From NCBI GenBank assembly GCA_031425655.1, contig JANPJS010000123.1, positions 1-15,156 on the forward strand: a stretch of DNA of 15,156 nucleotides, written 5' to 3'. The first letter of the stretch is position 1. The number at the start of each line of letters is the position of its first letter. The DNA is from Abditibacteriaceae bacterium. GTDB lineage: Bacteria > Armatimonadota > Abditibacteriia > Abditibacteriales > Abditibacteriaceae. This document shows positions 1 to 15,156 of the stretch, piece after piece. Under the pieces are notes generated by a model, which saw only the letters and a program-made list of their open reading frames with translations, was not told where the DNA came from and searched no databases. The translations under genes and the position numbers were made by a program.

Positions 1-72
1 CCGCGCAAAAGCCGAATTTTCAAGCCGAATCCGGCGCCCGCGAAGTGCCAAAATTTTGATCCTGAATTATTG

Positions 73-195
73 ACGGTGAGACGGGAAGGGCGGGAAGACG
101 GGAAGAAAACTAGGGCTTTTTCTTTTCAAAAAATTTTCGTAATCGAAATAAACTTCAAATTTCTTCCCGTCTTTCCGCCCTTCCCGTCTCACCGT
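73..195. repeat. 36-bp inverted repeat built from 8-mer tandem units (GACGGGAA-like) around a 51-bp AT-rich spacer
   Basis: Left arm 73-108 ACGGTGAGACGGGAAGGGCGGGAAGACGGGAAGAAA; right arm 160-195 is its reverse complement with one mismatch (a G-U pair in + strand RNA). Confidence 0.9.
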
Positions 196-218
196 TGAAA
201 TCGAACGCGAGGAGTTTT

Positions 219-902
219 ATGCTGCGAATTTGCTTTTTGTTTTTTCTTCTCGTCGCTCCGCTGCGCGCTGCCGAAGTGCAAAGCCACGGCTATTACTTCG
301 AGAAATGGGTGCAGGACAGCTTTTTCGATAGTTATCGCGTCGAGAATTACACGCAAGAATGGGACGTGACGGCTGCCGCCAATAAAAAGCACGGCGGCAT
401 ACCGGTTTCGATTAAATTCACCAAATACGGCACCTCGGTTGATTTGGGCGATGCCGTGCGACAATTCAATATCAACGAAAAATTCATGATCGTCATCGGC
501 TATTGGAAGCAGGAAGGCGACCGCAAACGCATCGTTCACATGATCGCGCTGGTCGTGACGCCGGAGCAGTGGCGCAAGCTGTTCGAGCCGATTAGCAAAG
601 ACGATTTGTTAAAGCTGGACGCGACGGTCAAAAACCGCGATTTATCGCCGCAGCAGGCCGCTTTGGAAGCCTCGAAAATCAAACGCACGGCGCCATTTAC
701 CGAAGCGTTGATGACTTTGAATCCGAAAATTGATACCAAAGGCCAGCGCCGTTTGCAGTGCAGTTTGCGCTTCAGTCACGTTTTTAAACATTTAGTGCCC
801 GATATTGACTCAAAAGCGCAGGAAAAGCCGATGCTGTTCGGCATCGAAGCGCCGCCGCCTTTTGTTTCCGGCCCGCGCAGCTTCAAGAAAGATGGAGAGT
901 GA
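219..902 (+). CDS. Hypothetical exported protein, possible PD-(D/E)xK (restriction endonuclease-like) fold
   Basis: ATG at 219 follows GAGGAG (209-214). N-terminus MLRICFLFFLLVAPLRA|AEVQ resembles a Sec signal peptide. Motif order HGYYFE...WD...SIK...LGD resembles a nuclease E...D...SxK core. A terminator follows. ORF is well supported; function is inferred. Confidence 0.75.
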   Translation: MLRICFLFFLLVAPLRAAEVQSHGYYFEKWVQDSFFDSYRVENYTQEWDVTAAANKKHGGIPVSIKFTKYGTSVDLGDAVRQFNINEKFMIVIGYWKQEGDRKRIVHMIALVVTPEQWRKLFEPISKDDLLKLDATVKNRDLSPQQAALEASKIKRTAPFTEALMTLNPKIDTKGQRRLQCSLRFSHVFKHLVPDIDSKAQEKPMLFGIEAPPPFVSGPRSFKKDGE

Positions 903-905
903 AAT

Positions 906-942
906 AGAAAAGCCCGCGACTGTAACAGTCGCGGGCTTTTCT
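906..942. terminator. Bidirectional intrinsic terminator between convergent genes
   Basis: AGAAAAGCCCGCGACTGT-A-ACAGTCGCGGGCTTTTCT perfect inverted repeat with A/T tails on both sides. Confidence 0.9.
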
Positions 943-956
943 TTAGGGGCAAAAGA

Positions 957-1667
957 TTATTTATCGTCCCAACTATTGTTGACATCGCCGTAAGGCCAGC
1001 CGTTGGGGAGCGGGCCAAAGAATTTGCTGGCTCTCATAGTTTTGGCGTGGCCGTCAACATAAGCCACATTAAAGCTGTCGAAGTGGCGTGCGACCGGACG
1101 GCGGGTTTCGTTGCCACCAGTGTTGGTATACCAACCCGTAGCTGTTCCCGTGTTCCAGTTTCCGGGCGGTGTCCACTGCCAGTCGGTTGTTGTGGTGCAG
1201 TAGGCGGGCCAATTTTCCGGATTTTGATCCGTTGTTACTGAGGCGTTGCATTGCGCGGCATCGGTGAGGAGCGCAGAGCCGGCACTACTGCCGATGTCAG
1301 CCAATGATCTACCGAAATCCCAGTTGGAAAGGTTCACGTTGATGCCATAACTGGCAGATAGGCGCGTGGAAGGACAGACATGAATCTGCGAGTTAGCACC
1401 TCCGCTCCCACCCAGATACGGCTGAACAGAGTTTCGCCAGCGTCCGGGTTGATTGTTTTTCGGCAAGATTTCGTCAAAATCCTGAGTGTATTGCGAGACA
1501 GCCAAGCCCAGTTGCTTGAGATTGTTCATGCAACTGGATTTGCGGGCATTCTCCCTCGCGCGTGCGAAAACCGGGAATAGAATGGCTGCCAGCAGCGCTA
1601 TGATTGCTATGACGACAAGCAATTCAATCAGTGTGAACGCGCGGCGGATATTTGTTTTGAAAATCAT
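957..1667 (-). CDS. Prepilin-type N-terminal cleavage/methylation domain protein (DUF1559-like) with C-terminal H-X9-DG motif
   Basis: [49 protein letters not shown]-terminal [23 protein letters not shown] 5 nt upstream of ATG. Confidence 0.93.
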
Positions 1668-1881
1668 GTTTTCTCCTCAAAATTGTGTGCAGTGTCAGTA
1701 TACCTATTCAAGACAATTTATAAACACACATAATAATTTGAGGGGTCGCGGAGTTTTTTCTGGGTTTCTCTCGTGCAATGACAAGGAATTTTGGCTCATC
1801 CGAAAATCCAAGAATTTGGAGAAGGTCATTTTCCTTGTCAAATCAAGCGTGAAAAACTCCGCGACCCCTCAATTATTTAAA

Positions 1882-2505
1882 TTAGCGATATTGCTGCATG
1901 ATTGGCAGCAGTTGGTCGGCGCTCAGGCCGCCGGTGATGCGGCCACGCTCGGTGCCGTCACCATTTATCCACACCAGAGTCGGCAGGCCGGTGATGCTGT
2001 AGCGTTGCGCCAGATCGGGAACATTGTCCACGTTGATTTTCACTGGCACGACGTTTTGCGCTTCTTGAACGATGGACGGATCGGGGAAAGTTTGGGCGTC
2101 CATGTCGCGGCAGGGGCCGCACCAATCGGCGTAGAAGTCCACCATCATCGGCTTGTTGCTGGATAGGGCGAGTTGCTGCGCGGCTTCAAACGAAGTCTGC
2201 CAGGCGATAGCGCTACTCTGAATCGGCGCGAACGTGGCGCTGGCGACGGCGGGCGCGGTTGGAGGGGCCGCAGGACGCCCGCGCAACGCGAGAAACAACA
2301 CCAGAGGCAGCACCAGCAACAAAAGCGGCGCCAGCAGCAGGAAAATTAGCTCGGTGGGCACGCGCTGACCGCCGTTTTGCTCGGCTTCGGCTTGCGCGAT
2401 GAGTTCCAGTTCGCGCAGTCGCGCGCTTTCAGCAGTCGAAACCGTATCCGACTGAATAGCCGGAGTCTGCGATTCGGGCGAGGGTAAAACACTTTCGTCG
2501 GGCAT
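1882..2505 (-). CDS. Membrane-anchored thioredoxin family protein
   Basis: Hydrophobic segment LIFLLLAPLLLLVLPLVLFLAL, Pro/Ala linker, MVDFYADWCGPC active site and GLPT cis-Pro loop. Confidence 0.92.
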   Translation of the reverse strand: MPDESVLPSPESQTPAIQSDTVSTAESARLRELELIAQAEAEQNGGQRVPTELIFLLLAPLLLLVLPLVLFLALRGRPAAPPTAPAVASATFAPIQSSAIAWQTSFEAAQQLALSSNKPMMVDFYADWCGPCRDMDAQTFPDPSIVQEAQNVVPVKINVDNVPDLAQRYSITGLPTLVWINGDGTERGRITGGLSADQLLPIMQQYR

Positions 2506-2517
2506 GAAAAATCTCCG

Positions 2518-3009
2518 TCAAACAAGGCCGCGCACGAAATCCAACACTTGCTGCGCGTGTCCTTCGGGCGTGACGCTCTCGAAAATATGCCGCAAGACGC
2601 CGTTTGCATCTGCGACGAAGGTCGTGCGCGCGACTTTCGTCACGGGTTTGCCATACATCGTCGCTTGTTTCAATAAGCCCCATTCTTGAATTAGCTTTGC
2701 GCCATCGTCGGCGGCGAGCGGGTAGAGCAAAGCCTGATTCTCAATGAAACGCCGGTGCGCCGACAATTTATCGCGCGAAATTCCCACGACAGCCACGCCG
2801 AGCGCTGCGAATTCTTCGTGCAGATCTCGGAATCCGACCGCTTCGTCGGTGCAGCCGCAAGTCGCGTCTTTCGGATAGAAAAACAAGACGAAAGGCCGCC
2901 CGGCGAAGCGGTCGGCGGAAAGCATGATTTCATCCAGTCCGTCGCCGGTTTTGACGACGGCGGGTAGTGAAAATTCGGGCAAAATCTGTCCGATTTGGGG
3001 AATGGGCAT
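2518..3009 (-). CDS. bcp: Peroxiredoxin, BCP/PrxQ subfamily
   Basis: FVLFFYPKDATCGCTDEA..FRD, VVGISRD, YPLAAD, RTTFV and GHAQQVL motifs typical of BCP. Confidence 0.9.
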   Translation of the reverse strand: MPIPQIGQILPEFSLPAVVKTGDGLDEIMLSADRFAGRPFVLFFYPKDATCGCTDEAVGFRDLHEEFAALGVAVVGISRDKLSAHRRFIENQALLYPLAADDGAKLIQEWGLLKQATMYGKPVTKVARTTFVADANGVLRHIFESVTPEGHAQQVLDFVRGLV

Positions 3010-3025
3010 GATGTAGCGTCACAAC

Positions 3026-4099
3026 TTAAACCGCGATGGCTTCTTTGGCTTCGATGCCGGACAACGCTTCGTGCGCGTGACGCAGCATCCGCTCGGTGGT
3101 TTCCCAATCAACGCAGGCATCGGTCACGCTGACGCCGTAGCGCAGTTGCGAAAGATCGCGGGGAACGGACTGGTTCCCTTCAACGAGAAAGCTTTCAATC
3201 ATCAGACCGATGACGGCTTTGTTACCTTCGGCGCGTTGCGCGATGACGTTTTGCGCCACTTCTTCCTGCTTGGCGTGCTGCTTGAACGAATTGGCGTGCG
3301 AGCAATCTACCATCAGCGTTGCACTTTGGCCGGCTTTTTCGAGAGCTTTCACGGCGTTTTCGATGCTTTGCTGATCGTAGTTCGAGCCGGCGCGCCCGCC
3401 GCGCAAAACGACGTGGCCGCAAGGGTTGCCGCGCGTGCGAATAATCGCCGTTACGCCTTCCTGATCAATGCCGAGAAACGAGTGCGGCGCGCGTGCCGAC
3501 TGCATGGCGTCAAGCGCGATTTGCAGGCTGCCGTCCGTGCCGTTTTTGTAGCCGACCGGCATCGAAAGGCCGCTCGCCATTTCGCGGTGCGTTTGCGATT
3601 CGGTCGTGCGGGCGCCAATCGCGGCCCACGAAACCAAGTCGGCGATATATTGGGGCACAATCGGGTCGAGAAACTCGGTCGCGGTCGGCAAACCCATTTC
3701 GGTGATTTGCAAAAGCAACTGCCGGGCGCGTTTGAGGCCGGTTTCGATGTCATACGAGCCGTCCATGTGCGGATCGTTGACAAGGCCTTTCCAGCCGACA
3801 GTCGTGCGCGGCTTCTCAAAATACACGCGCATCACGATGAATAAGCGGTCGGAAAGCTCATCGCGCAGTCGCGCCAGCTTTTCGGCATATTCGAGCGCGG
3901 CTTTGGTGTCGTGAATCGAACACGGGCCAAGCACGACTAACAAACGCGCATCATCGCCGCGCAAAATGCGCTCGACGGTTTCGCGCCCTTCGACGACCGT
4001 CGCGTTCGCAGTTTCGGTCATCGGCAGAAGTTCTTTATGGACACGCGGCGGCGCCAAAGGCACAGTGTCCTCCACATTTAAATCGGTAGTCGGAAGCAT
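3026..4099 (-). CDS. aroG: 3-deoxy-7-phosphoheptulonate (DAHP) synthase, class I alpha (AroF/G/H type)
   Basis: [50 protein letters not shown] and SVTDAC motifs. Start set at ATG 4099 (MLPTTDLNV), which matches the usual family N-terminus, rather than the GTG at 4168. The specific paralogue (F/G/H) cannot be resolved. Confidence 0.96.
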
Positions 4100-4196
4100 A
4101 ATAATCTTTTTTGGTTGGTTAGCGGACAGTTTAGCAAAGCGCGGCGGACGGCTGAAAAACGAAGTCACTCGTCGCTGATTTCGACGAGTTTTGATT

Positions 4197-4225
4197 TTGG
4201 GTTACGAGCGAAAGCGGCGTATAAT
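4197..4225 (+). promoter_or_regulatory. Putative sigma70 promoter for the PIN gene pair
   Basis: TTGGGT (4197-4202), 17 bp, perfect TATAAT (4220-4225); GGAG at 4234-4237 before ATG 4249. Confidence 0.6.
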
Positions 4226-4248
4226 TGTGTTGTGGAGAGTGAACGACA

Positions 4249-4566
4249 ATGAACGCAAAAGAAGCCGTAGCGGCGGCCAAAACCTATGTCGAAGAAATGT
4301 TTGCCGACGAGCAAATAACGGACTTGGGACTGGAAGAAGTCGAGTTTGAGGACGCGACGAATTGCTGGCGCATTACTGTCGGCTTTTCCTCCCCACAAAT
4401 TGCCGAAACGTATAACAAGAATCCCTTCAGTGAGCTGAGAAAAGGCGGTTCTTTAATTGAGATGATGCGGGAAAAAGCCCTGAGCCGATCTTACAAGGTG
4501 GTCACCATCAACGATAACAGCGCCCAGGTCGTCTCGGTGAAGAACCGGGAACTCCACGCTGTTTAA
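4249..4566 (+). CDS. Small hypothetical protein, putative partner (antitoxin-like) of the downstream PIN protein
   Basis: 105-aa ORF with RBS; acidic LGLEEVEFE segment, WRITVGF and RSYKVVTI; ends 11 bp upstream of the PIN gene. Confidence 0.8.
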   Translation: MNAKEAVAAAKTYVEEMFADEQITDLGLEEVEFEDATNCWRITVGFSSPQIAETYNKNPFSELRKGGSLIEMMREKALSRSYKVVTINDNSAQVVSVKNRELHAV

Positions 4567-4577
4567 AGCGATAACGC

Positions 4578-5042
4578 ATGAAGCGGATCCTTCTCGACAC
4601 CAATTTATTGGTTCTGCACATCGTGGCGGTTACCGATGAAAAGCTGATTGGCAAGCACAAGCGAACAAGGGCTTTCGTTCCAGACGATTTTCTGCTGTTG
4701 AAACTCGTTTTGCAAGATTATCCGCAAATCGTCGTGACGCCGCACATTCTGGCTGAAACCTTTAACTTGGTCGCTCAAATCGGCGACCCGGATAAATCGA
4801 GAATCTTACGCACTCTTGGCGATTTCGTGGGTAAACACGAAGAAATACAGCACCCCAGCAAAAGCGCCGTGAATGCCCCTTATTTCGTTCGTATGGGCTT
4901 GACGGACAGCCTCGTTCTCGAAATCATGCAAGACGGATTGCCGCTTTTGACGGACGATTACGATTTGTATCTTCAGGCCATGAACTCAAACTGTCTGGCT
5001 TTCAACTTCAATCATCTGCGACAGGCACATCTCTGGTCATAG
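4578..5042 (+). CDS. PIN domain protein (VapC-like ribonuclease)
   Basis: ILLDTNLL, TPHILAE, GLTDS and LLTDDYDL supply the PIN acidic residues in the expected order. Confidence 0.88.
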   Translation: MKRILLDTNLLVLHIVAVTDEKLIGKHKRTRAFVPDDFLLLKLVLQDYPQIVVTPHILAETFNLVAQIGDPDKSRILRTLGDFVGKHEEIQHPSKSAVNAPYFVRMGLTDSLVLEIMQDGLPLLTDDYDLYLQAMNSNCLAFNFNHLRQAHLWS

Positions 5043-5064
5043 GTCTCGAAACGATTTATCTACC

Positions 5065-5100
5065 AAAACAGCCCACCGACACGTTCGGCGGGCTGTTTTT
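5065..5100. terminator. Intrinsic terminator between convergent genes
   Basis: AAAACAGCCCACCGA-CACGT-TCGGCGGGCTGTTTT; the single mismatch is a G-U pair in the minus-strand transcript; T-tracts on both strands. Confidence 0.85.
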
Positions 5101-5117
5101 CTGCGAGAAAACAAGCC

Positions 5118-5984
5118 TTATCCGGCCATCGGCGCCATTTCAACGGCGTAGAGGCTGCCGTCAGAATCGAGCGCGTAAAGCGACGGCATCGGGCCGTCGT
5201 GGCCGACGAAAAGGAACTTCGTCGCTTTGTAAATCGGCTTACCCATTGGAATTGGCTTCACGTCGTCGCCCGCCGCCAAGACGCTCCACTGCAACACGCC
5301 CTTGTCGTTGACGACGTAAAGCGTGTCTACTTCGCTGACAATCGCGCCGGCTTTGCTGCCTTTCCACAGCGCCGGTTTGCCGAGGTTTTTCCATGTGCCG
5401 TCGGATGGGTTGACGTTATAAAGCGTGCCGTCAGTCTCGATAGTAAAAATTCCGGTTTCGCTGTAAGCCACTTTATCGCGGCCCAAAATTAAGTTTGTGC
5501 CGGCGAATTCGGGCTTGCCCAACTGCTTCCATTGCCCACTCGCGGAATTCGTGCGAAACAACGCACCGCTTTTCTCGACGGTGTAAAGCTGATTGCTGGC
5601 CGTCGCGCCGTTGAGGGTGTTTTTCCACTCGCCGGCTTTGCCCATGCGCTGTCGCCCGCCGTTGGCCGGGTTGATGCGATAAAGGTTGCCGTCGGTTTCG
5701 ATGGAATACAGGCTTGAGTTGGCGGCGAGCAGAATTTTCGTTCGGCCAAAAACGGCTCTGCCAACCGGCTTCCATTTGCCGCTTTTCAGGTCGGTGGAGT
5801 AGAGAACGCCGCTCGACTCGACGCTGTAAAGGGTGTTTTTCAGCACGGCGCCGGCAATGGTGTTTTTCCAATTGCCGGCTTTGCCCAAACGCTTGCGGTC
5901 GCCCGGTTCGGCATGAGCCAGCGAAGTCAACAACACGCCCAGCAGCGCGGCGGGGCGCGCCCAACGACTGATCGAAACTTGCAT
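5118..5984 (-). CDS. Secreted six-repeat beta-propeller protein (tachylectin/tectonin-like)
   Basis: ATG 5984 with AAAGGA RBS; signal peptide ending SLAHA|E; six ~40-46-aa repeats with LY(S/T)(V/I)E..G.LY and LGK..W/F motifs. Confidence 0.8.
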   Translation of the reverse strand: MQVSISRWARPAALLGVLLTSLAHAEPGDRKRLGKAGNWKNTIAGAVLKNTLYSVESSGVLYSTDLKSGKWKPVGRAVFGRTKILLAANSSLYSIETDGNLYRINPANGGRQRMGKAGEWKNTLNGATASNQLYTVEKSGALFRTNSASGQWKQLGKPEFAGTNLILGRDKVAYSETGIFTIETDGTLYNVNPSDGTWKNLGKPALWKGSKAGAIVSEVDTLYVVNDKGVLQWSVLAAGDDVKPIPMGKPIYKATKFLFVGHDGPMPSLYALDSDGSLYAVEMAPMAG

Positions 5985-6012
5985 GATGAATTCCTTTGTG
6001 TGGCTGATTTTA

Positions 6013-6141
6013 ACCCCCAACCCCCTTGATAAGGGGGCTAACGAATGACTGGCAGGAGAAGGCAGAGCGTGATAGCAACTGTCACTTTTATTTTCTCTTA
6101 CCAACTGATTCATTAGCCCCCTTACCAAGGGGGTTGGGGGT
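6013..6141. repeat. MITE/REP-like element: 29-bp terminal inverted repeats, each containing an internal CCCCCTT-N3-AAGGGGG palindrome
   Basis: 6013-6041 ACCCCCAACCCCCTTGATAAGGGGGCTAA versus 6113-6141 TTAGCCCCCTTACCAAGGGGGTTGGGGGT (1 mismatch), 71-bp spacer. Confidence 0.85.
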
Positions 6142-6173
6142 CAAGCGGTCATAGACCGCCGTTTCAAACGCCT

Positions 6174-7124
6174 TCAATTTGCCGCGATAAGTTGCACGAT
6201 GGCGACTAAAACCAGTGCGGTGTCGCCGTTGTTTTTGACGCGGTGCAGCGCGGAGAATTGCGATTTCGGGCCGCGCTTGTAAGTCACTTTTGGGTCGTCG
6301 TCGGTTTTTTCTGCGTCGGTCGGCGCACGCAGATTGCCGTCAATGGTCGCTTCCAAATCGTCGGTGTTGTCGTCGCTGGCGGCGATGAGAATGTATTTGG
6401 TGCCGGCGTTGAGATTGTGGCCGTTTTCCGAGTGCGAGCCTTTGGGAATCACGCCGCCGTGGATGCTGAACCATGTATAGGCGAGGTCGGCGCCGTTTGG
6501 GTTCGCCTCGCGGATTTTGTCGAGGCGTTTTTGCAGCTTGGCCGCCGCGATTTTCATGTTTTCGAGCGGCACGTCCCAGCCGGCGTCTTTGCGAAGCAGC
6601 ACAAACGCGACGTAGGCGCTGGTTTTGCCGGCGTTTTCGTCCACGTCTTCCAAAATGATGCGAATACCGGCGCCCTGCCGCTTCGGCACCTTGAATACCA
6701 CGCCCGGCGCGTTGTTGTCTTCGGTGCTTTCGGTGATGACAGGGTCGTTCTCATTGGCCATGCGAATCTGCCCGCCCGGATTGAGAATCTGAATCTTAAT
6801 CTTGGTGGCAGCGTTGTCGCCGCCGCCGATGACGGCGTATTCGACGCCGGGTTCGAGCGTCGGCGTGTTGATTTTCGACTCGCCTTTTTTCAGCCAGCAG
6901 CCTTTGATGCTGTGGTTATAGCCAACCGGCTGCGTCGCTTGCGTCGAGTTGTCCAGACCGTATTCTTTGAGTTCATCGGTCTGGCTGCGCTGAAAAACGC
7001 GGTCAATGGCCTGAAGCAGCGGATGCTCGTCCGCCTTCGCACGTTGCGGCAGCGCGATGGCTGCCCAAAGCAGAGTCAGGGCCGCAATGGCGCGGCGTGC
7101 GACGGTGCGTCGAACGGCTTTCAT
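6174..7124 (-). CDS. Secreted hypothetical protein with two internal beta-sandwich (PPC-like) repeats
   Basis: ATG 7124 with AAAGGA upstream (alternative TTG start at 7142); signal peptide ending QRAKA|D; repeats LEPGVEYAVIGGGDN...P.V.F and LNAGTKYILIAASDD...P.V.Y. Confidence 0.78.
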   Translation of the reverse strand: MKAVRRTVARRAIAALTLLWAAIALPQRAKADEHPLLQAIDRVFQRSQTDELKEYGLDNSTQATQPVGYNHSIKGCWLKKGESKINTPTLEPGVEYAVIGGGDNAATKIKIQILNPGGQIRMANENDPVITESTEDNNAPGVVFKVPKRQGAGIRIILEDVDENAGKTSAYVAFVLLRKDAGWDVPLENMKIAAAKLQKRLDKIREANPNGADLAYTWFSIHGGVIPKGSHSENGHNLNAGTKYILIAASDDNTDDLEATIDGNLRAPTDAEKTDDDPKVTYKRGPKSQFSALHRVKNNGDTALVLVAIVQLIAAN

Positions 7125-7142
7125 GAGTTCAATCCTTTTCAA

Positions 7143-8093
7143 TTACTGCTTTTCCAGCGTCCACTTGTTTTCGTGGGCTTCGTTGCGCGAGCGCAGGATG
7201 GTTTCGCCGTTGTCTTCGTCGTTGATGTAAATCGCGCGGCCACCCAACTTCACGTTGGTCAACATCACGCCGTCGCCGTTTTTCTCGAAGCGCCAGAACT
7301 GCTCGCCTTCGGGAGAATCGGCTTTGTCGGCTAACACGACTTTGCCGGTGTCATCATCGGTGGGAATTAGGCACTGCCCGTCTTTACCGACCGGGATGAT
7401 GCGGAATGCTTTGGGGAATTGATCCGGTGCGGCTTCAAGCTTCCATTTGCGCGCGGCTTCGTCGCCGTCTTTTTTGGAGAGAATGCCGTCTTTGTCGTCG
7501 TTGAGCGCCAGGAACCAGTCACCTTTTTTGATGACGTAATCGCCGTCGGTTTCGGGCAGCAAGAAATCGGAAACCACGCCGTCATCTTTCAATTCGTTGC
7601 CGTCGTAGTCGCGGCGAAATTCCATGACGCCGGTGTTGCCGTCCTGCGAAGCCCAGCGGCCTTTGAGATATTCAAAATTGTCGTCGCGGCTGTAGATCAG
7701 CGAGCGAATCACAGTGTTAGCGAGCTTGTTCGGGCCTTCGATGAGTTTGTCCGGCGTCCAAACCATCAGTTTTTTTTCGAAGTTGAAGTTGCCGTCGAAC
7801 TCGTATTTGCCCCAGCTTTTGGCGTTGGCCTTGTCTTTGGCGGTGTAGGTGCCGGTCAGGTTTTTGAAGGAGCCGTCAATCTCCAGCGCCACGAACCAAC
7901 TCGCCGCACCGGGGACGGCGGGATAATTCCAGCCTTTGCCGGTTTTCCAGTTGTAAGCAGCGTTGGCGGGAATCTTCCCTTTCTGGGATACCATGTGTCC
8001 AGACCAGGTGCCGCTCAGGGTTTCGCCCGCCGCAGCGGGGTTTACGAAGCTCGTCGCCAGCAGTGCGACGCCGGCCAGCAGTGACTTTTTCAT
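7143..8093 (-). CDS. Secreted protein with C-terminal ricin-B/beta-trefoil lectin-like domain
   Basis: RBS GAGGAG; signal peptide MKKSLLAGVALLATSFVNPAAA|G; three trefoil-like subrepeats ending RKWKL, QFWRF and NKWTL, with a GQCL motif; beta-rich N-terminal domain starting LSGTWSG. Confidence 0.8.
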   Translation of the reverse strand: MKKSLLAGVALLATSFVNPAAAGETLSGTWSGHMVSQKGKIPANAAYNWKTGKGWNYPAVPGAASWFVALEIDGSFKNLTGTYTAKDKANAKSWGKYEFDGNFNFEKKLMVWTPDKLIEGPNKLANTVIRSLIYSRDDNFEYLKGRWASQDGNTGVMEFRRDYDGNELKDDGVVSDFLLPETDGDYVIKKGDWFLALNDDKDGILSKKDGDEAARKWKLEAAPDQFPKAFRIIPVGKDGQCLIPTDDDTGKVVLADKADSPEGEQFWRFEKNGDGVMLTNVKLGGRAIYINDEDNGETILRSRNEAHENKWTLEKQ

Positions 8094-8329
8094 CTTTGTT
8101 TTCTCCTCTGAATATCCGCTCCGGCGCCTCGTTAACTGGCACCGACGATTTGGGAATGGCGACTAACACAGCGCGATGCCGCACTTGTTTTTAATCAGGT
8201 CTGCGCTTCTCGATTGCGCGGAACTCCGCTTTCTGCCGTTGCGCCACTCATTAATATTTATTTAAAGGAATCATTGCACTGCAACTATTAACTCAAATGA
8301 AACTGCTTGGTAGAAAACAGGGATAAAGC

Positions 8330-8338
8330 TGTGGATAA
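8330..8338 (-). promoter_or_regulatory. Consensus DnaA box upstream of dnaE
   Basis: TGTGGATAA is the reverse complement of TTATCCACA; intergenic, about 150 bp upstream of dnaE. Confidence 0.6.
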
Positions 8339-8411
8339 CCGCGTGTCGCCTTTGTCATGAAACGTCACGACGCAGAAAATTCCAGCAGCGCCTCCGGCGG
8401 ACAGCTCGTTT

Positions 8412-8420
8412 TGCTATAAC
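8412..8420 (+). promoter_or_regulatory. Putative extended -10 promoter element for dnaE
   Basis: TGCTATAAC (TGn plus a TATAAT-like hexamer) 65 nt upstream of the ATG; no clear -35. Confidence 0.4.
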
Positions 8421-8485
8421 CTTTAATTACCGCGCGGTTCGCCGTTCGTCCATTCCACTCCTCATTAAAGTAAAGGCCGCCTCCG

Positions 8486-11400
8486 ATGTCCAAATGCCCC
8501 TGCGGGTTTTGTCATTTACACGTTCACTCCGAATACTCGCTGCTCGACGGCGCTAATCGCATCAAGGATTTGGCGAAGCGCGCCGCCGAAATGGATATGC
8601 CCGCGCTGGCGCTGACCGATCACGGCGTGATGTATGGCGCTATTGACCACTACGAAGCGTGCAAAGCTGTCGGTGTGAAGCCCATCATCGGGATGGAAGC
8701 CTACGTCGCTCCGCGCAAGCATACCGACAAAGATTCGCAAAAAGACACGCAAAAGCTGACTAATCACCTGACTTTGTGGGCCAAAAACGCGACGGGCTAC
8801 AAAAACCTCGTCAAGTTGACGACACGCGCCAATCTGCACGGCTTTTATTACAAGCCGCGCGTGGATCACGAACTGCTTGCCGAGTTTTCTGAAGGATTAA
8901 TTTGCGGCAGCGCGTGCTTGGGCGGCGAGATTCCGCAGCTTATCATCGGGCAGAAGTTGGACGAAGCGCAGCGCCGCGCCGAGAAATACCGCGAGATTTT
9001 CGGCAAAGAAAACTTTTTCCTTGAATTGATGGATCACGACCTGACCGGGCAGGACGAAGTCAATCAGCGCGTGATTGATATTCATCACAAGACGGGAATC
9101 CCGCTCATCGCCACCAACGACGCGCATTATCTGCGGCGCGAAGACGAGCAGATGCACAAGATTTTGGTCTGCATCGGCACCAACACCACAGTTGACAAAG
9201 CCACATTGCATTACGGGCCGAATTTCTATCTCAAGTCGGCGGAAGAAATGTATGAAAAGTTCAAGCACGTCCCCGAAGCGATGGAAAACACGCTTCGCAT
9301 CGCGGACATGGTTGATCTTGAGTTGGATTTAAAAACCACGCATTTTCCCAACTTCGACGTGCCCGCCGGCCACGATTTGGTGTCGTTTCTGCGCGAGTTG
9401 TGCAAACATCGCTTCGATTCGCGTTATCCTGCCGGCCATCCGCGCCGCGCCGAGGCGATTCCGCGCATGGAATACGAGTTGGGCATCATCATCCAGAAGG
9501 GTTATGCCGGCTACTTTTTGGTGGTGCAGGATTTCATCAACTGGTCGAAAGAGCGCGGCATTTTAGTCGGTTGTCGCGGAAGCGCGGCGGGATGCCTCGT
9601 TTCCTACGTTTTGGGCATCACCAACCTCGATCCGTTGCCGTATGGCTTGCTTTTCGAGCGCTTTTTGAACCCGGATCGTGTTTCCACGCCCGATATTGAC
9701 GTGGACTTTCCCGACAAGCGCCGGGACGAAGTTCTGCAATACGTTTCGGGCAAATACGGCAAAGATAAAGTCGCACAGATCATCACTTTTGGAACGCTTG
9801 CGGCTCGCGCCGCGATTAAAGACACCGCACGCGCAACCGGACTCGACCTGCAAATCGCCGACAAAGTTTCCAAGCTGATTCCCGCGATTCCCGGCCATCC
9901 GATTTCGATTATGCAGGCCGTTGAACAAGTCAACGAATTAAAAAACCTTTACGAAACCGATTCGACAATTCGCCGCCTGTGCGATACGGCCACAAAAATC
10001 GAAGGCATGACGCGCCATTCCTCGCGTCACGCCTGCGGCGTCGTGATTGGCCAGAACGCGCTTGATGAATTAGTGCCCCTGGAAGAAAAAGACGGCGTGA
10101 TTATCACGCAATATCACGCCAAAGCCGTCGAAAAAGTCGGGCTGGTCAAGATGGACTTCCTCGGCCTGCAAAACAACACGGTCATCAACGACACCTTAGA
10201 ACTCATCAAAACGCGGCACGGACGCGACATTGACTTGGAAAACATAGACCTGACCGACAAAAAGGTCTACGACATGATGGGGCGCGGCGACGGCATCGCG
10301 GTTTTCCAGATGGAAGGCGTGGGAATGCGAAACCTGCTGCGCGAAATGAAGCCGGAAAATCTGGAACACATCATCGCGCAGATCAGTTTGTATCGTCCCG
10401 GCCCGATGGACGAAATTCCGCGCTACATCGCAGGCCGTCACGGTGGCAAAGTCACCTATCCGCATCCGAAATTAGAGCCGATTCTCAAAGACACCTACGG
10501 AATGCTGCTTTATCAGGAGCAGGTCATGCAAGCGGCGCAGGCGCTTGCCAACTTCACCGGCGGCCAATCGGAAACGCTGATGAAGGCCATGTCGAAAAAA
10601 CAGGCCGACGCGATGGCGAAGATGAAGCCGCTTTTCGTGGACGGCTGCAAAACCAACGGCATCAATCAAAACGACGCGATTGATATTTTCGACCGTATGG
10701 AAGCCTTCGCAAAATACGCGTTTAATAAGTGCGCGCACGCTCAAACGAAGGTTTATTTGCCTGACGGCACAGGTATAACATTGGCCTGCGCTTTTCGTGA
10801 GCAACCCTCGCAAATCATGGCGATGTGGCCGGACGGCCAAGTGCGCCCGCACAAAGTCGCGCGGATCGTGCAAACCGGACGTAAGGCGCTGCTCAAAATT
10901 ACGACACAAAAAGGCCGTGTGATTAAGGTCACGCCGGAGCATCGCCTGCTCACGACCGAAGGCTACAAAGAAGCTCGTGAGATGGACAGCGGCATGGAAT
11001 TGATGACGATGCCGCATTTCTGGCGAGGTATGCCTGAAAGTGCGCGCGAAGCGCGCCGCCAAAATATGCGTCGCGTGAACGCGCATCCGCAACGCCGAAA
11101 GTGGGCGCAGGAAGCGTCGGAGCGCATGAAGACTTATCAGGCCGCGCGACCTTTAGAAGACAAAGTCGCGCACATGAAACGGATGCACGAATTGCATCCC
11201 GATATGACGCGCCCGGCAGTTGCGGCCATGCACGAGCGGGTGAAATGGCTCATTGCCAACGACGCAGAATGGAAGCAGAATTGGATTCAAAAATCAATCG
11301 CCAACACGCGCGAATGCTATGACACCGGCCCCGGCTATGGGCGTTGCTCAATTGCCTCCAATGGAATGTGGTGCGCCAGCCGGCCCGAACGCGACATGGC

Positions 11401-13351
11401 CGAGTGGCTCATCGCGCAGGGCATCGAGTTCGAGATGCACAAAGTTCTGCCGAATGGGCGCATCTGTGATTTCTATTTCGCGGGCATTTACTGGGAAATG
11501 GACGGTATGGATCGCGTGGCCGAATACTTCGAGGCCAAATACGGTGATTTGCCCTTTGTCGTAGTCACACCCGAAGATTTCAAGTTCAAAATCGAACACC
11601 ATTTGCAGTTGGCGCACGCCGAAAACGGCGACCCGATTGTCAGCATTGAGCCGTGCGGAATTTCGATGACTTACGACATCGAAATGGCGCCTGATGGCCC
11701 ACTCAATTACATCGCCAACGGCATCGTTTCGCACAATTCGCACGCCGCGTATTATGGCTTGGTTTCGTATTGGACAGGCTATTTAAAGGTCAATTACGCC
11801 TCGGAGTTTATGGCGTGCAAGATGACCAGTTTGCTGGATAAAAAAGACAAACTGCTCATCATTATTGACGATTGTCGCAAGCATGGCATCGAAGTTTTGC
11901 CGCCGGATGTCAACGAATCGAACTTCGATTTCACGGTCGTCGGGAGCGGTGAAAAACCGCCGATCCGCTTCGGATTACAAGCGATTAAAGGCATCGGCGA
12001 AGGCCCAATCAGTGCGATTTGCGATGCGCGCAAAGAAGGCGGGCGTTTCGCGTCGCTTTTCGATTTTTGTGAACGCGTGGCCAGCCGCGCCTGCGGCAAA
12101 AGCTGCATCGAAATTCTCATTAAATGCGGCGCCTTCGACACATTGCACGCCAACCGAAAGGCGATGCAGGAAGCGCTTGACGGCGCCATTGATCGGGGCC
12201 AAAAAGCGCAACAGGACGCGCTTTCCGGCCAAATGAACATCTTCGCCACAGACAGTGGCGAAGTCGGACGGCCCAAATCGCAAGGCGAACTGCCGAACAT
12301 CGCGGATGCCGACCGCGACACGCGCTTGTTGTGGGAAAAAGAGCTGCTGGGCCTGTATATCAGCGACCATCCGCTGTTGGCGATGCGCGAATATTTGGAG
12401 CAAAACACGGTTTCGCTCGAACGATTGGGCGAAGACCGCACCTTCAGCGATGGCAGCCGCGTTACGGTCGGCGGTATGGTGACGGTTTTAAAGAAGATGG
12501 TGGACAAAAATGGGCGGACGTGGTGCGCCTTCACCATCGAAGACTTGACTGGCTCGATTGAGATTCTTGCCTTCGCCAAGACCTTCGATAAGTGCAGCGA
12601 AATCGTCAACGAAGACGCGAAACTGCTGATTACAGGCCGTCTTTCCGCCGACAATCGGCGCGGCAACCGCATGAATTCCGAAGACGAAGAAGCGGGCGAA
12701 GAAACCATCGTTTACAAAATCATGGCCGACAGCGTGGAAGTGATTCCAACCGATGCCGCCCAACTTGTGGTGGAAGCGCCTGCCTATGTGCCGCCCGTCG
12801 CATTGCCCGATAAAATCGGCAACGAGGTCGTTTATCAGCCCGGCACGCCGCCGATGCCGAATCCTAACGGAAACGGCCTGAGCAGCCGCAGCCTTACCGT
12901 TGGCGCGTCGAACGGCAACGGAAATAACGGGAATGGCTACAAAAACGGCTCGAATGGCAAGAACGGCGGCTATTCAAACGGCAGCGGTTCCAACGGCCAC
13001 TCATCGAATAATCACAGCGCACCTGTCGCCGTCGAAGCGCCGCCTGAAACTTACGGCAAGCCGCAGCCGGCGCGCGTCGGACGCGTTTTCGCGCCGCCCG
13101 CCGAAGCGATGCACGCCGTCCATATGCACCTGCCCGAAGAGATGGCGACGGCGGAAACCATTAACAAACTGTGGAACATCTGCCGCGAGCATCACGGCCC
13201 GTGCGAAGTCTGGCTGCACATTGACAACGGCCTCGAATTGCTGCAACTGCGCGTGTCGGAAGGCTTCTTCGTCACGCCGTGTCAAGAGTTCGTAGACCAA
13301 ATCTTAGACGTGCTCGGCGATGGCCGGCTGCTGGTGCCGCGCCCTTTGTGA
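8486..13351 (+). CDS. dnaE: DNA polymerase III alpha subunit precursor containing one intein (1621 aa; 1285 aa after splicing)
   Basis: PHP domain (HLHVHSEYSLLDG, LTDHG, NDAHY), RGSAAG, FERFLNPDR, PDIDVDF, KMDFLGL, FNK|SH, EKELLGLYISDHPL, OB fold and clamp-binding-like QMNIF. Confidence 0.98.
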   Translation: MSKCPCGFCHLHVHSEYSLLDGANRIKDLAKRAAEMDMPALALTDHGVMYGAIDHYEACKAVGVKPIIGMEAYVAPRKHTDKDSQKDTQKLTNHLTLWAKNATGYKNLVKLTTRANLHGFYYKPRVDHELLAEFSEGLICGSACLGGEIPQLIIGQKLDEAQRRAEKYREIFGKENFFLELMDHDLTGQDEVNQRVIDIHHKTGIPLIATNDAHYLRREDEQMHKILVCIGTNTTVDKATLHYGPNFYLKSAEEMYEKFKHVPEAMENTLRIADMVDLELDLKTTHFPNFDVPAGHDLVSFLRELCKHRFDSRYPAGHPRRAEAIPRMEYELGIIIQKGYAGYFLVVQDFINWSKERGILVGCRGSAAGCLVSYVLGITNLDPLPYGLLFERFLNPDRVSTPDIDVDFPDKRRDEVLQYVSGKYGKDKVAQIITFGTLAARAAIKDTARATGLDLQIADKVSKLIPAIPGHPISIMQAVEQVNELKNLYETDSTIRRLCDTATKIEGMTRHSSRHACGVVIGQNALDELVPLEEKDGVIITQYHAKAVEKVGLVKMDFLGLQNNTVINDTLELIKTRHGRDIDLENIDLTDKKVYDMMGRGDGIAVFQMEGVGMRNLLREMKPENLEHIIAQISLYRPGPMDEIPRYIAGRHGGKVTYPHPKLEPILKDTYGMLLYQEQVMQAAQALANFTGGQSETLMKAMSKKQADAMAKMKPLFVDGCKTNGINQNDAIDIFDRMEAFAKYAFNKCAHAQTKVYLPDGTGITLACAFREQPSQIMAMWPDGQVRPHKVARIVQTGRKALLKITTQKGRVIKVTPEHRLLTTEGYKEAREMDSGMELMTMPHFWRGMPESAREARRQNMRRVNAHPQRRKWAQEASERMKTYQAARPLEDKVAHMKRMHELHPDMTRPAVAAMHERVKWLIANDAEWKQNWIQKSIANTRECYDTGPGYGRCSIASNGMWCASRPERDMAEWLIAQGIEFEMHKVLPNGRICDFYFAGIYWEMDGMDRVAEYFEAKYGDLPFVVVTPEDFKFKIEHHLQLAHAENGDPIVSIEPCGISMTYDIEMAPDGPLNYIANGIVSHNSHAAYYGLVSYWTGYLKVNYASEFMACKMTSLLDKKDKLLIIIDDCRKHGIEVLPPDVNESNFDFTVVGSGEKPPIRFGLQAIKGIGEGPISAICDARKEGGRFASLFDFCERVASRACGKSCIEILIKCGAFDTLHANRKAMQEALDGAIDRGQKAQQDALSGQMNIFATDSGEVGRPKSQGELPNIADADRDTRLLWEKELLGLYISDHPLLAMREYLEQNTVSLERLGEDRTFSDGSRVTVGGMVTVLKKMVDKNGRTWCAFTIEDLTGSIEILAFAKTFDKCSEIVNEDAKLLITGRLSADNRRGNRMNSEDEEAGEETIVYKIMADSVEVIPTDAAQLVVEAPAYVPPVALPDKIGNEVVYQPGTPPMPNPNGNGLSSRSLTVGASNGNGNNGNGYKNGSNGKNGGYSNGSGSNGHSSNNHSAPVAVEAPPETYGKPQPARVGRVFAPPAEAMHAVHMHLPEEMATAETINKLWNICREHHGPCEVWLHIDNGLELLQLRVSEGFFVTPCQEFVDQILDVLGDGRLLVPRPL
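10730..11737 (+). mobile_element. Intein (336 aa) inserted in the DnaE FNK|SH motif, carrying a putative PD-(D/E)xK/Vsr-like homing endonuclease region
   Basis: Starts at Cys (CAHAQTKV), block B IKVTPEHRLLT, block F TYDIEM, ends NGIVSHN followed by +1 Ser. Removal restores AFNKSHAAYY. Confidence 0.95.
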
Positions 13352-13368
13352 TTCTTCGAGTCATTCTG

Positions 13369-13986
13369 TCAAATAGCGTCGAAGTTTTCTTCGACATAAG
13401 CCATAATGCGCCACATTTTTTCTCGTGCGGCTTCTGGAGTTAATGCCAAGCGATAAGATTCAGCATAGCCATCGTTTTCATCAAACATTCTCTGCGCGGC
13501 CATCAGCCACAGCCCGACGTAATCGTCCGCGTAGTGAGTGCTTAGCTGCTCATCAATCCATAGTAAGGCGCCAACGCACCAATCGGAGTCGCTATCGCCG
13601 GCTAAATTCTGCAAAACTCGATTCAAGTGGGTGCAAAGGAAACTAGCTGAGGCATGGGAAGCAAAGCGAGCCAAAGCGAAACTGTAACCTTGTGACGTGA
13701 TGAAGTAATTGTGGCGGACGAGGGCGCGGCCAATGTCCAATGTAAAGTCATCCCAATTCTTAAGCCCACAAAACCAAGCCCCCGGCAATTTTGCACGCCA
13801 GTTTGCATCAGTCAACAAGTCACCGGCGATTTCCGGCGTAATGTCATGGAGCGCATCTCTTACAAGACAATTCCATTGGTCTTGAGATAAGTCATTGTGC
13901 ATTTCAGGAGAAATGAAATTACCATGAAGGAATTTCAGATAGAAAGGCACGCACCATCTTTGGGCATCAAACGAATTCTCCTGCAT
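13369..13986 (-). CDS. DUF6000-like hypothetical protein
   Basis: PFYLK...LL.DANWRAKLPGAWFCG...IG..L......SQGYSFALARF pattern recalled for this family; visibly more AT-rich codon usage than dnaE. Confidence 0.7.
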   Translation of the reverse strand: MQENSFDAQRWCVPFYLKFLHGNFISPEMHNDLSQDQWNCLVRDALHDITPEIAGDLLTDANWRAKLPGAWFCGLKNWDDFTLDIGRALVRHNYFITSQGYSFALARFASHASASFLCTHLNRVLQNLAGDSDSDWCVGALLWIDEQLSTHYADDYVGLWLMAAQRMFDENDGYAESYRLALTPEAAREKMWRIMAYVEENFDAI

Positions 13987-14006
13987 AAGGCAAGTATAGA
14001 AACCAA

Positions 14007-14038
14007 AACAGCCCGCGCTTTTAAAAGCGCGGGCTGTT
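14007..14038 (-). terminator. Intrinsic terminator downstream of speD
   Basis: Perfect 32-bp palindrome AACAGCCCGCGCTTTT/AAAAGCGCGGGCTGTT, continuing into UUUUGGUUU on the minus strand, 16 nt after the speD stop. Confidence 0.85.
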
Positions 14039-14054
14039 CGGGTGTGTGGCTCGG

Positions 14055-14576
14055 TTAGTTCAACGGGTGGCCGTTGGATTCGTAGCCGTTGGGATGATAG
14101 CCGTTAAGCGCGGTGTGAGTTTCTTCCGCGCCCACGCCGACCAATTCCAAATCCGGCTTGGTGATATTGGGCGTGTAGGCAGTCACGGTTTTGGACATGC
14201 GCGTGGGCAGCATGGTGGTCTCGTTGCCGTATTCCAGACCGCGCCGCAAAACGCAGGTCTCGACTTCGCTCAGGCCAAATTGCTCCATCAAGATGTCGCA
14301 GGTTTTGACCGGATCGAATTCCTTGCACGAAAACACGTCAATCGAAACTTCGCCGCTTTCGGGGAAAGTATGCACCGAGATGTGCGATTCCGCGATCATC
14401 ACGAAGCCGCTAATTCCCCAGTCTTCCGGCGTCACGCCGACGTAGCGGGTGACAATCGGCGGCATGATTTTCGTCATGTTAATCCGCCCCGGCAGCGTGT
14501 CCAACAAATCATACAATGCGGGCAAATCTTGCAGCTTGTGCCAGTTGCCTCCGCGACCTTCAATTACCAAATGCAT
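14055..14576 (-). CDS. speD: S-adenosylmethionine decarboxylase proenzyme (small prokaryotic class 1B, pyruvoyl-dependent)
   Basis: MHLVIEG, GISGFVMIAE|SHISVHTFPE self-cleavage motif, SIDVFSC and RG; RBS AGGAGG at 14583-14588. Has a ~50-aa C-terminal tail. Confidence 0.92.
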   Translation of the reverse strand: MHLVIEGRGGNWHKLQDLPALYDLLDTLPGRINMTKIMPPIVTRYVGVTPEDWGISGFVMIAESHISVHTFPESGEVSIDVFSCKEFDPVKTCDILMEQFGLSEVETCVLRRGLEYGNETTMLPTRMSKTVTAYTPNITKPDLELVGVGAEETHTALNGYHPNGYESNGHPLN

Positions 14577-14641
14577 TGACTGCCTCCTGTTGCTGGCGGG
14601 GACGTTGTGGCCCCTCGCCGCCCTTGAGCCCGACCTTTCTG

Positions 14642-14712
14642 GAATTGAGAATGGAGAATGATGAATGGAGAAAATGGGTATTTCTCAATTCCTAATTCTC
14701 AATTCTTCATTC
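14642..14712. repeat. Inverted pair of heptamer tandem arrays (GAATTGA/GAATGGA-like; STRR-like hairpin)
   Basis: GAATTGA GAATGGA GAATGAT GAATGGA GAAAAT (14642-14675) facing ATTTCTCAA TTCCTAA TTCTCAA TTCTTCA TTC (14680-14712). Confidence 0.85.
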
Positions 14713-14864
14713 GCTGTTAACCGGGCCACACTCCTTTCACGGCTTTGTTGATTAGGATTCCGAAATGTCCGCACCGCGAACGGACTTTCGGCACTACACA
14801 CGCATTCATCGCCTGAGCGTTGGATTTTGCGTGCTTCTACAACTTTTGGTGCTGTATGCGACAT
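14685..14864 (-). CDS. Candidate 59-aa leader peptide (uORF) upstream of speD
   Basis: ATG 14864 to TGA 14685: MSHTAPKVVEARKIQRSGDECVCSAESPFAVRTFRNPNQQSRERSVARLTANEELRIRN. Same strand as speD, ends 108 nt before the speD ATG; RBS is weak. Confidence 0.45.
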   Translation of the reverse strand: MSHTAPKVVEARKIQRSGDECVCSAESPFAVRTFRNPNQQSRERSVARLTANEELRIRN

Positions 14865-14883
14865 GGCGTCCGAAATTTTGGCG

Positions 14884-14975
14884 AAAGAAAAAGTCACACC
14901 AGTAATCAGGACTAATCCTCGCTCTTGCGAGTTAGGCCCCCAGTGTGACTTTCACACAGACCATTTAAGGTCTGT
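14884..14975 (-). ncRNA. Candidate structured cis-regulatory RNA at the 5' end of the speD leader
   Basis: Minus strand: hairpin ACAGACC-UUAAAU-GGUCUGU; then long stem AAAGUCACACUGG...CUGGUGUGACUUU enclosing CUAA/UUAG and CUC-GCAA-GAG (GNRA loop), followed by a U-tract. Confidence 0.5.
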
Positions 14976-14985
14976 TTAGTTGTCG

Positions 14986-15015
14986 GTTTTACCACTTTGG
15001 CGCACAGCGTTTCAA
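14986..15015 (-). promoter_or_regulatory. Putative sigma70 promoter for the speD leader transcript
   Basis: Minus strand TTGAAA (15015-15010), 18 bp, TG-G-TAAAAC extended -10 (14991-14986), just upstream of the first hairpin. Confidence 0.4.
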
Positions 15016-15156
15016 AGCATACAGCTAAACGATAAACGCTTCAAGATGGTTGCGTGGAATTTTCCGTTTCCCGAAAAATTTAACATGAGATGATTAACTA
15101 CAAAGACATCCGCCCAGAGGGCACCCGGCACAAAGATTTCACAAAGAATTTGAAAG

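Follow-up and report, generated by a model that had tools for sequence, protein, structure and literature searches.

What controls the SpeD-family gene that lies near one end of a 15,156-nt stretch of DNA from an Abditibacteriaceae bacterium (GenBank assembly GCA_031425655.1, contig JANPJS010000123.1, positions 1 to 15,156; ‘the window’), a peptide translated from its leader or the leader RNA itself? The gene (14055–14576, on the minus strand, as are all leader features below) encodes a pyruvoyl decarboxylase proenzyme of 173 aa, probably SpeDA (PF02675, E 7.5e-25). Its start is the ATG at 14576, preceded by the ribosome binding site (RBS) AGGAGG (14588–14583; RBS and start codon together, 14574–14588), and a strong, terminator-like hairpin lies 3′ of it (14006–14039). 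The gene was present in 24/24 same-family genomes; it appears to be monocistronic in the window, and at 17 family loci the ORFs downstream were varied and unrelated. The protein's C-terminal tail, encoded at 14055–14230 (−), runs some 55 residues past the PF02675 domain, ends in Asn-Gly-His-rich repeats and is a family-wide feature.

The original prediction was of an arrest peptide: a ribosome translating a short upstream ORF would stall at the residues RERSVAR and thereby swap RNA stems at the RBS. The ORF exists as described, with 59 codons (14685–14864, read from 14864 to 14685), nine of them for Arg, an end 108 nt before the ATG at 14576, and an SD-like AAAGGAG at 14737–14731. Its product had no Pfam match at E ≤ 1, and no SD-like sequence was seen upstream of its ATG. 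Conservation was assessed in 39 leaders, comprising 25 family loci (window included), one close homolog, and 13 metagenome loci that came from an RNA-pattern scan and not from a gene search. The scan returned at least 120 stretches; 80 of those listed were examined, and 67/80 were excluded as chance matches. The 39 leaders are kin, some near-identical, and the covariation controls reported here therefore overstate.

RERSVAR was readable in 26/39 leaders, and the motif frame yields Arg codons (AGG, CG-) in every leader, but no ORF, start, SD, length or upstream residues were conserved among the 39. In-frame starts (ATG, GTG or TTG) were present in 21/39 leaders and absent from 18/39, and even with all three frames allowed, only 1/39 leaders had a start preceded by an SD-like sequence. 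An in-frame stop fell no more than 13 codons 5′ of Ala-Arg in 13/39 leaders and a TAA interrupted the RERSVAR motif itself in 3/39; relative to the gene, the frame of the motif split 13/13/13. The codons of RERSVAR are conserved as nucleotides, all three positions, the third included, being nearly invariant in 27/27 canonical cores, with no pattern of synonymous variation. Peptide conservation was considered in each of the three frames and rejected because of the missing starts, internal stops and frozen third positions. A peptide of the form NPNxQxRERxVAR had also been suggested to lie upstream of other speD genes; it was not found at the loci inspected, NPN occurring in 1/39 leaders, the window's own.

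The stem swap fared little better. As predicted, UGUGGCCC (14730–14723) is complementary to GGGCCACA (14613–14606), but the match does not clearly exceed chance, a perfect 8-bp helix arising in 11% of base shuffles of the region. Across the 39 leaders the helix was complete in 18, had seven pairs in 12 and four to six pairs in nine, with no compensating pattern, and forcing it cost a median of 4.2 kcal/mol. In nested-fold models, which omit the pseudoknot described below, the stem-swap comparison gave median unpaired values for the SD of 0.64 versus 0.54, lower by more than 0.15 in 9/39 leaders and higher in two, and thus no consistent change in RBS accessibility. As a switch the full 8-bp helix is unsupported, being incomplete in many leaders and having little effect on SD accessibility; a switch made of its four invariant pairs is possible. 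The arrest-peptide model can still point to the readability of RERSVAR, to the constancy of Arg codons in its frame, to an alternative helix within 3 kcal/mol in 15/39 leaders, and to the fact that Arg-codon sensing would suit an arginine decarboxylase (compare Salmonella orf34; PMC6386406). It is nevertheless unsupported because ribosomes have no conserved entry into that frame: comparison of the leaders largely refutes it, and we give it only the faintest chance of being correct. The 59-codon ORF is judged to be incidental to the window's genome, and RERSVAR to be a reading of nucleotides conserved as RNA.

The RNA half of the original prediction stood up better. Its GCCCGG/UCGGGC helix and GGCG-A-GGG/CCC-CGCC hairpin are both present in the sequence and in the predicted fold (z −3.4), and the broader claim, that conserved regulatory stems adjoin the RBS of a polyamine gene, is borne out by the 39 leaders, in which two-sided changes in a pseudoknot, in hairpin P4 and in a further hairpin (element A) exceed those in shuffled controls. 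The pseudoknot (14780–14773 with 14743–14736), the upstream promoter and element A had all been missed.

The conserved fold that abuts the RBS, termed here element B (14791–14577), can be followed from 5′ to 3′ as a series of small domains. Hairpin P1 (14760–14791), present in the minimum free energy fold, carries in its loop (14780–14773) the 5′ strand of the pseudoknot; the 3′ strand (14736–14743) consists of the bases just 5′ of an SD-like AGGAG, which occupies the junction that follows (14727–14735) and has no start codon behind it. P3 (14628–14726) joins GCCCG (14726–14722) to CGGGC (14632–14628) and so encloses both an internal loop rich in A and a hairpin insert that varies between leaders (14719–14636). 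P4 (14595–14619), with a conserved 6-nt loop, CAMAAH, stands beside the RBS. A stem of at least 4 bp enclosed the loop strand of P1 in 38/39 leaders, its sequence freely variable; in the one miss, L016, the automatic anchor was wrong. In the pseudoknot, 257/273 cells were paired, compared with 231 ± 3 (maximum 242) when partners were shuffled, and a G-C to A-U swap was seen in 10/39 leaders. On a MAFFT alignment (A3) the pseudoknot was 85% paired and its covariation score was above all 500 shuffles, 2/5 measures not exceeding the shuffles; two-sided change was seen there in 5/8 pairs, some of it arising from a 2-nt misregister of one subgroup. P4 had 89.8% of cells paired and two-sided change in 5/9 pairs, and in its count the whole-structure covariation was above 500/500 shuffles and every slid control. 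Both strands of P3 were invariant in 39/39 leaders, the 3′ strand having belonged to the search pattern for 13 of these, and since its sequence never varies covariation speaks neither for nor against the helix. A further short hairpin, P5, holds the SD of the gene in its loop in most relatives (83% of cells paired where it is present) and is weak or absent in the window and in several short leaders.

The insert within P3 ranges from 30 to 93 nt, in all length classes modulo 3, and folds more stably than shuffled sequence (z < −2) in 33/39 leaders. That of the window is composed of a repeat that occurs 27 times in the genome, and relatives fill the same slot (14719–14636 in the window) with other repeat types, which suggests that it is a tolerated insertion site for REP-like hairpins. 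At one family locus (L011, genome G022), two differing B cores stand on either side of an assembly gap (Ns) approximately 240 nt upstream of the gene, probably because the assembly merged two strains.

AGGAG was invariant in 39/39 leaders, eight of which showed the fuller SD AGGAGGU, and a start codon 4–12 nt behind it was found in 0/39. Such a site could serve as a standby or decoy SD: AGGAG would load 30S subunits, P3 would bring them near the RBS, and bulk polyamine or Mg would tune the folding of the pseudoknot, P3 and P4 without a specific aptamer. This would account for the missing clean anti-SD switch as well as for the invariant AGGAG, but it leaves the CAMAA loop, the invariant As of the internal loop and the frozen sequence of P3 unexplained, and we think it unlikely.

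Further upstream, a promoter-like site (15016–15044) combines a −35 hexamer TTGAAG (15044–15039), a 17-nt spacer and a −10 hexamer TATGCT (15021–15016), with a presumed start site beyond; a generic promoter scan of the window did not list it. Between this site and B lies element A (14884–14952), a bulged, terminator-like hairpin of some 21 bp with a U run behind it, its apical part conserved in sequence. Element A was found in 35/39 leaders (31 canonical, three diverged, one reduced to the basal stem), with 95.7% of cells paired, two-sided change in eight pairs, and 0/500 shuffles reaching as high. A −10-like hexamer lay 35–90 nt 5′ of A in 31/35 A-bearing leaders, mostly with a TTG hexamer at −35, and three of the four scored without a −10 end too close upstream. 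A second promoter between A and B was not enriched (3/35 leaders, against 7.1 in shuffles), and in the four leaders without A the promoter-like site runs directly into B; B is therefore a 5′ UTR element. To arrive at B, polymerase in most genomes has to get past A, and no conserved RNA anti-terminator for A was found in the leaders. Nine public RNA runs were listed, each with a small share; four of them yielded contigs of relatives, in which A, the B core, P4 and the CDS are all covered. In run X4, two contigs connect A to B, but such contigs hold no strand, end or single-transcript information and were not counted as read-through.

Strong, full-length, single-copy matches to element A were obtained in 25/27 family genomes, compared with short, weak matches (E 1e-4 to 9e-3) in 6/137 other genomes of the phylum and 0 matches in viral contigs, and A stays at the SpeD-family locus while the flanking genes vary. 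Promoter and U run together delimit a short transcript of about 95–143 nt (median 126 nt, 31 leaders), and A might accordingly be part of an independent small RNA, B and the gene being fed by read-through or by an unrecognised promoter. The loss or reduction of A in 5/39 leaders in which B persists fits this proposal; the lack of conservation in the 5′ half of the transcript and the fixity of A at one locus despite its changing flanks do not, and the proposal is silent about B. We consider it very unlikely.

Alternatively, A and/or B could be protein-binding sites, A for an antiterminator and B for a translational repressor; the RNA-binding regulator might be SpeY or the decarboxylase. Element A is a ready-made terminator for which no RNA anti-terminator was found, its bulged apex is conserved in sequence like a protein antiterminator site, and the taxonomic range of the leader is narrow. 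Against this, the obvious GGA binder, CsrA, was not found in 27/27 family genomes, the locus has no linked regulator gene, and each element occurs in one copy per genome; a bound regulator seems improbable. Control by CsrA/RsmA in particular was rejected, PF02599 being detected in 0/27 family genomes (the search control matched 3/14).

Element B was found only in Abditibacteriaceae-like sequences. A covariance model matched it in 13/13 family genomes, in a single copy each, and at one place in the window's genome. There were no matches in 137 other genomes of the phylum, four of the order or class, or 57 outside loci, in a search whose model was family-trained and whose phylum stage was strictly filtered, so that distant forms may be missed. 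Among the 80 metagenome pattern loci examined, the 13 that bear the whole motif (61–148 bits) all lie directly before a SpeD-family gene, as do, in total, 39/39 known copies of B, 13 of them found via the RNA pattern. In viral contigs the B pattern was matched five times by chance, never ahead of a SpeD-family gene. The leader shows two of the features expected of a riboswitch: conserved, covarying structure in a 5′ UTR and steady association with one class of metabolic gene. In another family of the same order, the leader of a 72%-identical homolog (L026:1880–2200 (−), genome G025) is of another kind: it folds very strongly (z −5.9), includes a long hairpin closed by GCCC/GGGC and does not match the B model. 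It may be a further regulatory RNA of this gene.

The ligand of any such switch depends on what the gene encodes. It had been called speD; membership of the PF02675 family holds, whereas identity as an S-adenosylmethionine decarboxylase (AdoMetDC) does not, and the protein is probably an arginine-decarboxylase derivative, SpeDA. Li et al. 2023 (PMC10407285) show that SpeD homologs which co-occur with speY and speB in the absence of SpeE decarboxylate arginine (SpeDA), with biochemical proof for an Armatimonadota SpeDA, that of Capsulimonas corticalis; SpeY converts agmatine to bis-guanidino-homospermidine (G44G) and SpeB converts G44G to homospermidine (PMC13625781). No Abditibacteriaceae protein is named in the available text of either paper. 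The window protein scored 66.9 against the AdoMetDC model TIGR03330, under the cut-off of 75.65. PF01564 was matched in 6/27 family genomes, and the window's genome, where an AdoMetDC would be expected to have SpeE as a partner, contains no full SpeE, its PF01564 match being a 774-aa protein at 34–43 bits against SpeE cut-offs of 250–260. A DHS/SpeY-like gene was present in 27/27 family genomes. The agmatinase of the window's genome is above its cut-off, the sole PF02784 protein there is LysA, and a search of that genome gave no match to PF16653. The gene following outside homologs (30 of 56 tested) was of the arginase family in 18, of the DHS family in nine and speE in none; 27/30 precede agmatinase- or SpeY-like genes. 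The genomic pattern of a SpeDA, in which SpeE is missing and SpeY and SpeB are encoded nearby or elsewhere in the genome, is thus what was found. A SpeDA would also be expected to lack the Pro conserved in AdoMetDC and the four SpeDC residues; at the candidate Pro site the sequence is DWG[IV]S in 80/80 homologs and P-x-G in AdoMetDC-like proteins, a site that is not anchored on published residue positions.

Like the SpeDA proteins described in PMC10407285 and PMC13625781, the window protein is a SpeD homolog in a genome with SpeY and SpeB and without SpeE; it differs from them in its solitary gene, outside any speY-speB cluster, and in its C-terminal tail of about 55 residues. On this genomic evidence we hold with good confidence that the gene encodes a SpeDA arginine decarboxylase. 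The ‘speD’ annotation of the window's clade is accordingly likely to be wrong, and SAM and spermidine are the wrong first-choice ligands because the gene is probably not an AdoMetDC. Two family genomes with stronger PF01564 matches, G010 (locus L051) and G008 (locus L052), contain an additional, different speD of classical appearance; it adjoins a longer gene resembling spermidine synthase and has no B leader. One DHS/SpeY-like protein (L137:1381–2739, G000:C205; 452 aa) exceeds the family models in length and falls short of every NCBIfam cut-off, its best score being to ‘homospermidine biosynthesis protein’; it is possibly a diverged SpeY subfamily.

The explanation we favour, tentatively and at somewhat less than an even chance, is that an arginine decarboxylase of SpeD descent is controlled in cis by a leader RNA in two parts, which most likely senses a metabolite and acts as an OFF switch; the leader would then be an orphan riboswitch candidate. 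The enzyme would make agmatine for the SpeY route, by which agmatine becomes bis-guanidino-homospermidine and then homospermidine. The scattered invariant nucleotides of B would form one tertiary pocket, with the variable insert looped out by P3. The bound ligand, one of the pathway's products (homospermidine, agmatine or G44G), would stabilise P3/P4 against the RBS, lowering translation initiation. Element A would act as a leaky terminator that sets the number of transcripts reaching B, and may also be polyamine-tuned via its bulges.

Several of the observations above argue for such a switch: nucleotides are conserved rather than codons, covariation in the pseudoknot, P4 and A exceeds shuffled and slid controls, and the invariant islands are split by a replaceable hairpin of 30–93 nt. 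The 13/80 examined metagenome loci with the whole motif, each directly before a SpeD-family gene, point the same way, as do the single copy of B in the window's own genome and in each of the 13 family genomes, its place in the 5′ UTR, the lack of a CsrA match in 27/27 family genomes, the SpeY-like gene in 27/27, and an agmatinase above cut-off alongside LysA as the only PF02784 protein. There is also precedent for a polyamine OFF riboswitch (PMC10853860). On the other side, the leader has no clear two-state expression platform, the alternative helix acting inconsistently on the RBS and P5 missing in several leaders, the window's among them; A has no conserved anti-terminator, leaving the passage of polymerase unexplained, and four leaders are entirely without A; P3 is invariant; the motif was found in one family only, so that its sequences are kin; and the activity of the enzyme is judged from context. 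A narrower proposal is that B belongs to a new class of riboswitch, of non-SAM-I fold, which recognises agmatine, bis-guanidino-homospermidine or homospermidine and works in tandem with a polyamine-stabilised terminator A that senses inside its own hairpin; we regard this as doubtful.

The window gave no Rfam matches at gathering thresholds, and matches at E ≤ 10 in 14500–15156 and in nine homologous loci were chance hairpin matches only. Known Rfam classes (SAM-I and its variants, SAM-II/V/VI, guanidine and preQ1) were rejected, none matching by covariance model, and, in the absence of an Rfam match, any likeness to guanidine-I, SMK, SAM-VI, glmS or HDV ribozymes was discarded. In the translational riboswitches built on H-type pseudoknots (SAM-II, SAM-V, preQ1 and guanidine-III), a hairpin loop pairs with a downstream strand beside an SD-like purine run, and that run is the gene's own SD. 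Element B matches no Rfam model and departs from this arrangement: its purine run stands 115–240 nt upstream and lacks a start codon, and 3′ of it come two more conserved domains.

In the literature searched, one bacterial polyamine riboswitch is validated, a SAM-I variant that recognises spermidine, earlier claims having been called unconvincing (PMC10853860). That riboswitch (Salvail et al. 2023, PMC10853860) is likewise a structured 5′ leader of polyamine biosynthesis genes, and the mechanism proposed here is modelled on its OFF logic; it has a SAM-I four-way junction and acts by termination, whereas the window leader has no enclosing P1 or SAM-I match, abuts the RBS with its fold and carries its terminator upstream of that fold. 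The SpeFL/orf34 leader of speF (PMC6386406; bioRxiv 10.1101/604074) is also a long leader of a polyamine decarboxylase with Arg codons in one frame, but it requires a translated, conserved ORF, and the ORF of the window leader is not conserved. The literature search returned no paper that pairs Abditibacteri with a riboswitch. The motif was not described in the titles and abstract openings covered, a scope that excludes the motif lists in the supplements to PMC11109978 and PMC5737381, where relevant entries could affect its novelty; the available main text of PMC11109978 makes no mention of speD, decarboxylase, polyamine or Armatimon. The tandem leader is real, family-restricted and apparently undescribed, and a good candidate for an orphan riboswitch.

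Were the riboswitch reading true, B would be the first RNA sensor of the agmatine/SpeY homospermidine pathway in the literature searched, and would offer a first handle on the regulation of that agmatine-dependent pathway (PMC13625781). Its restriction to one family limits the reach of the finding; the 39 natural variants, the clear invariant residues and a short list of candidate ligands (arginine, agmatine, G44G, homospermidine and putrescine) make the motif directly testable.

Elsewhere in the window, the DNA polymerase III alpha subunit (8486–13351 (+), 1621 aa) contains an intein (PF14890, residues 786–1084) with an insert that is endonuclease-like by eye without a Pfam match; the C-terminal part has an Asn/Gly-rich linker. 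A two-gene unit at 4249–5042 (+), encoding 105 aa and 154 aa, the second PIN-domain-like by eye, is possibly a toxin-antitoxin pair. The protein encoded at 957–1667 (−) has, by eye, a prepilin-type N-terminal motif and is of a kind abundant in the lineage.
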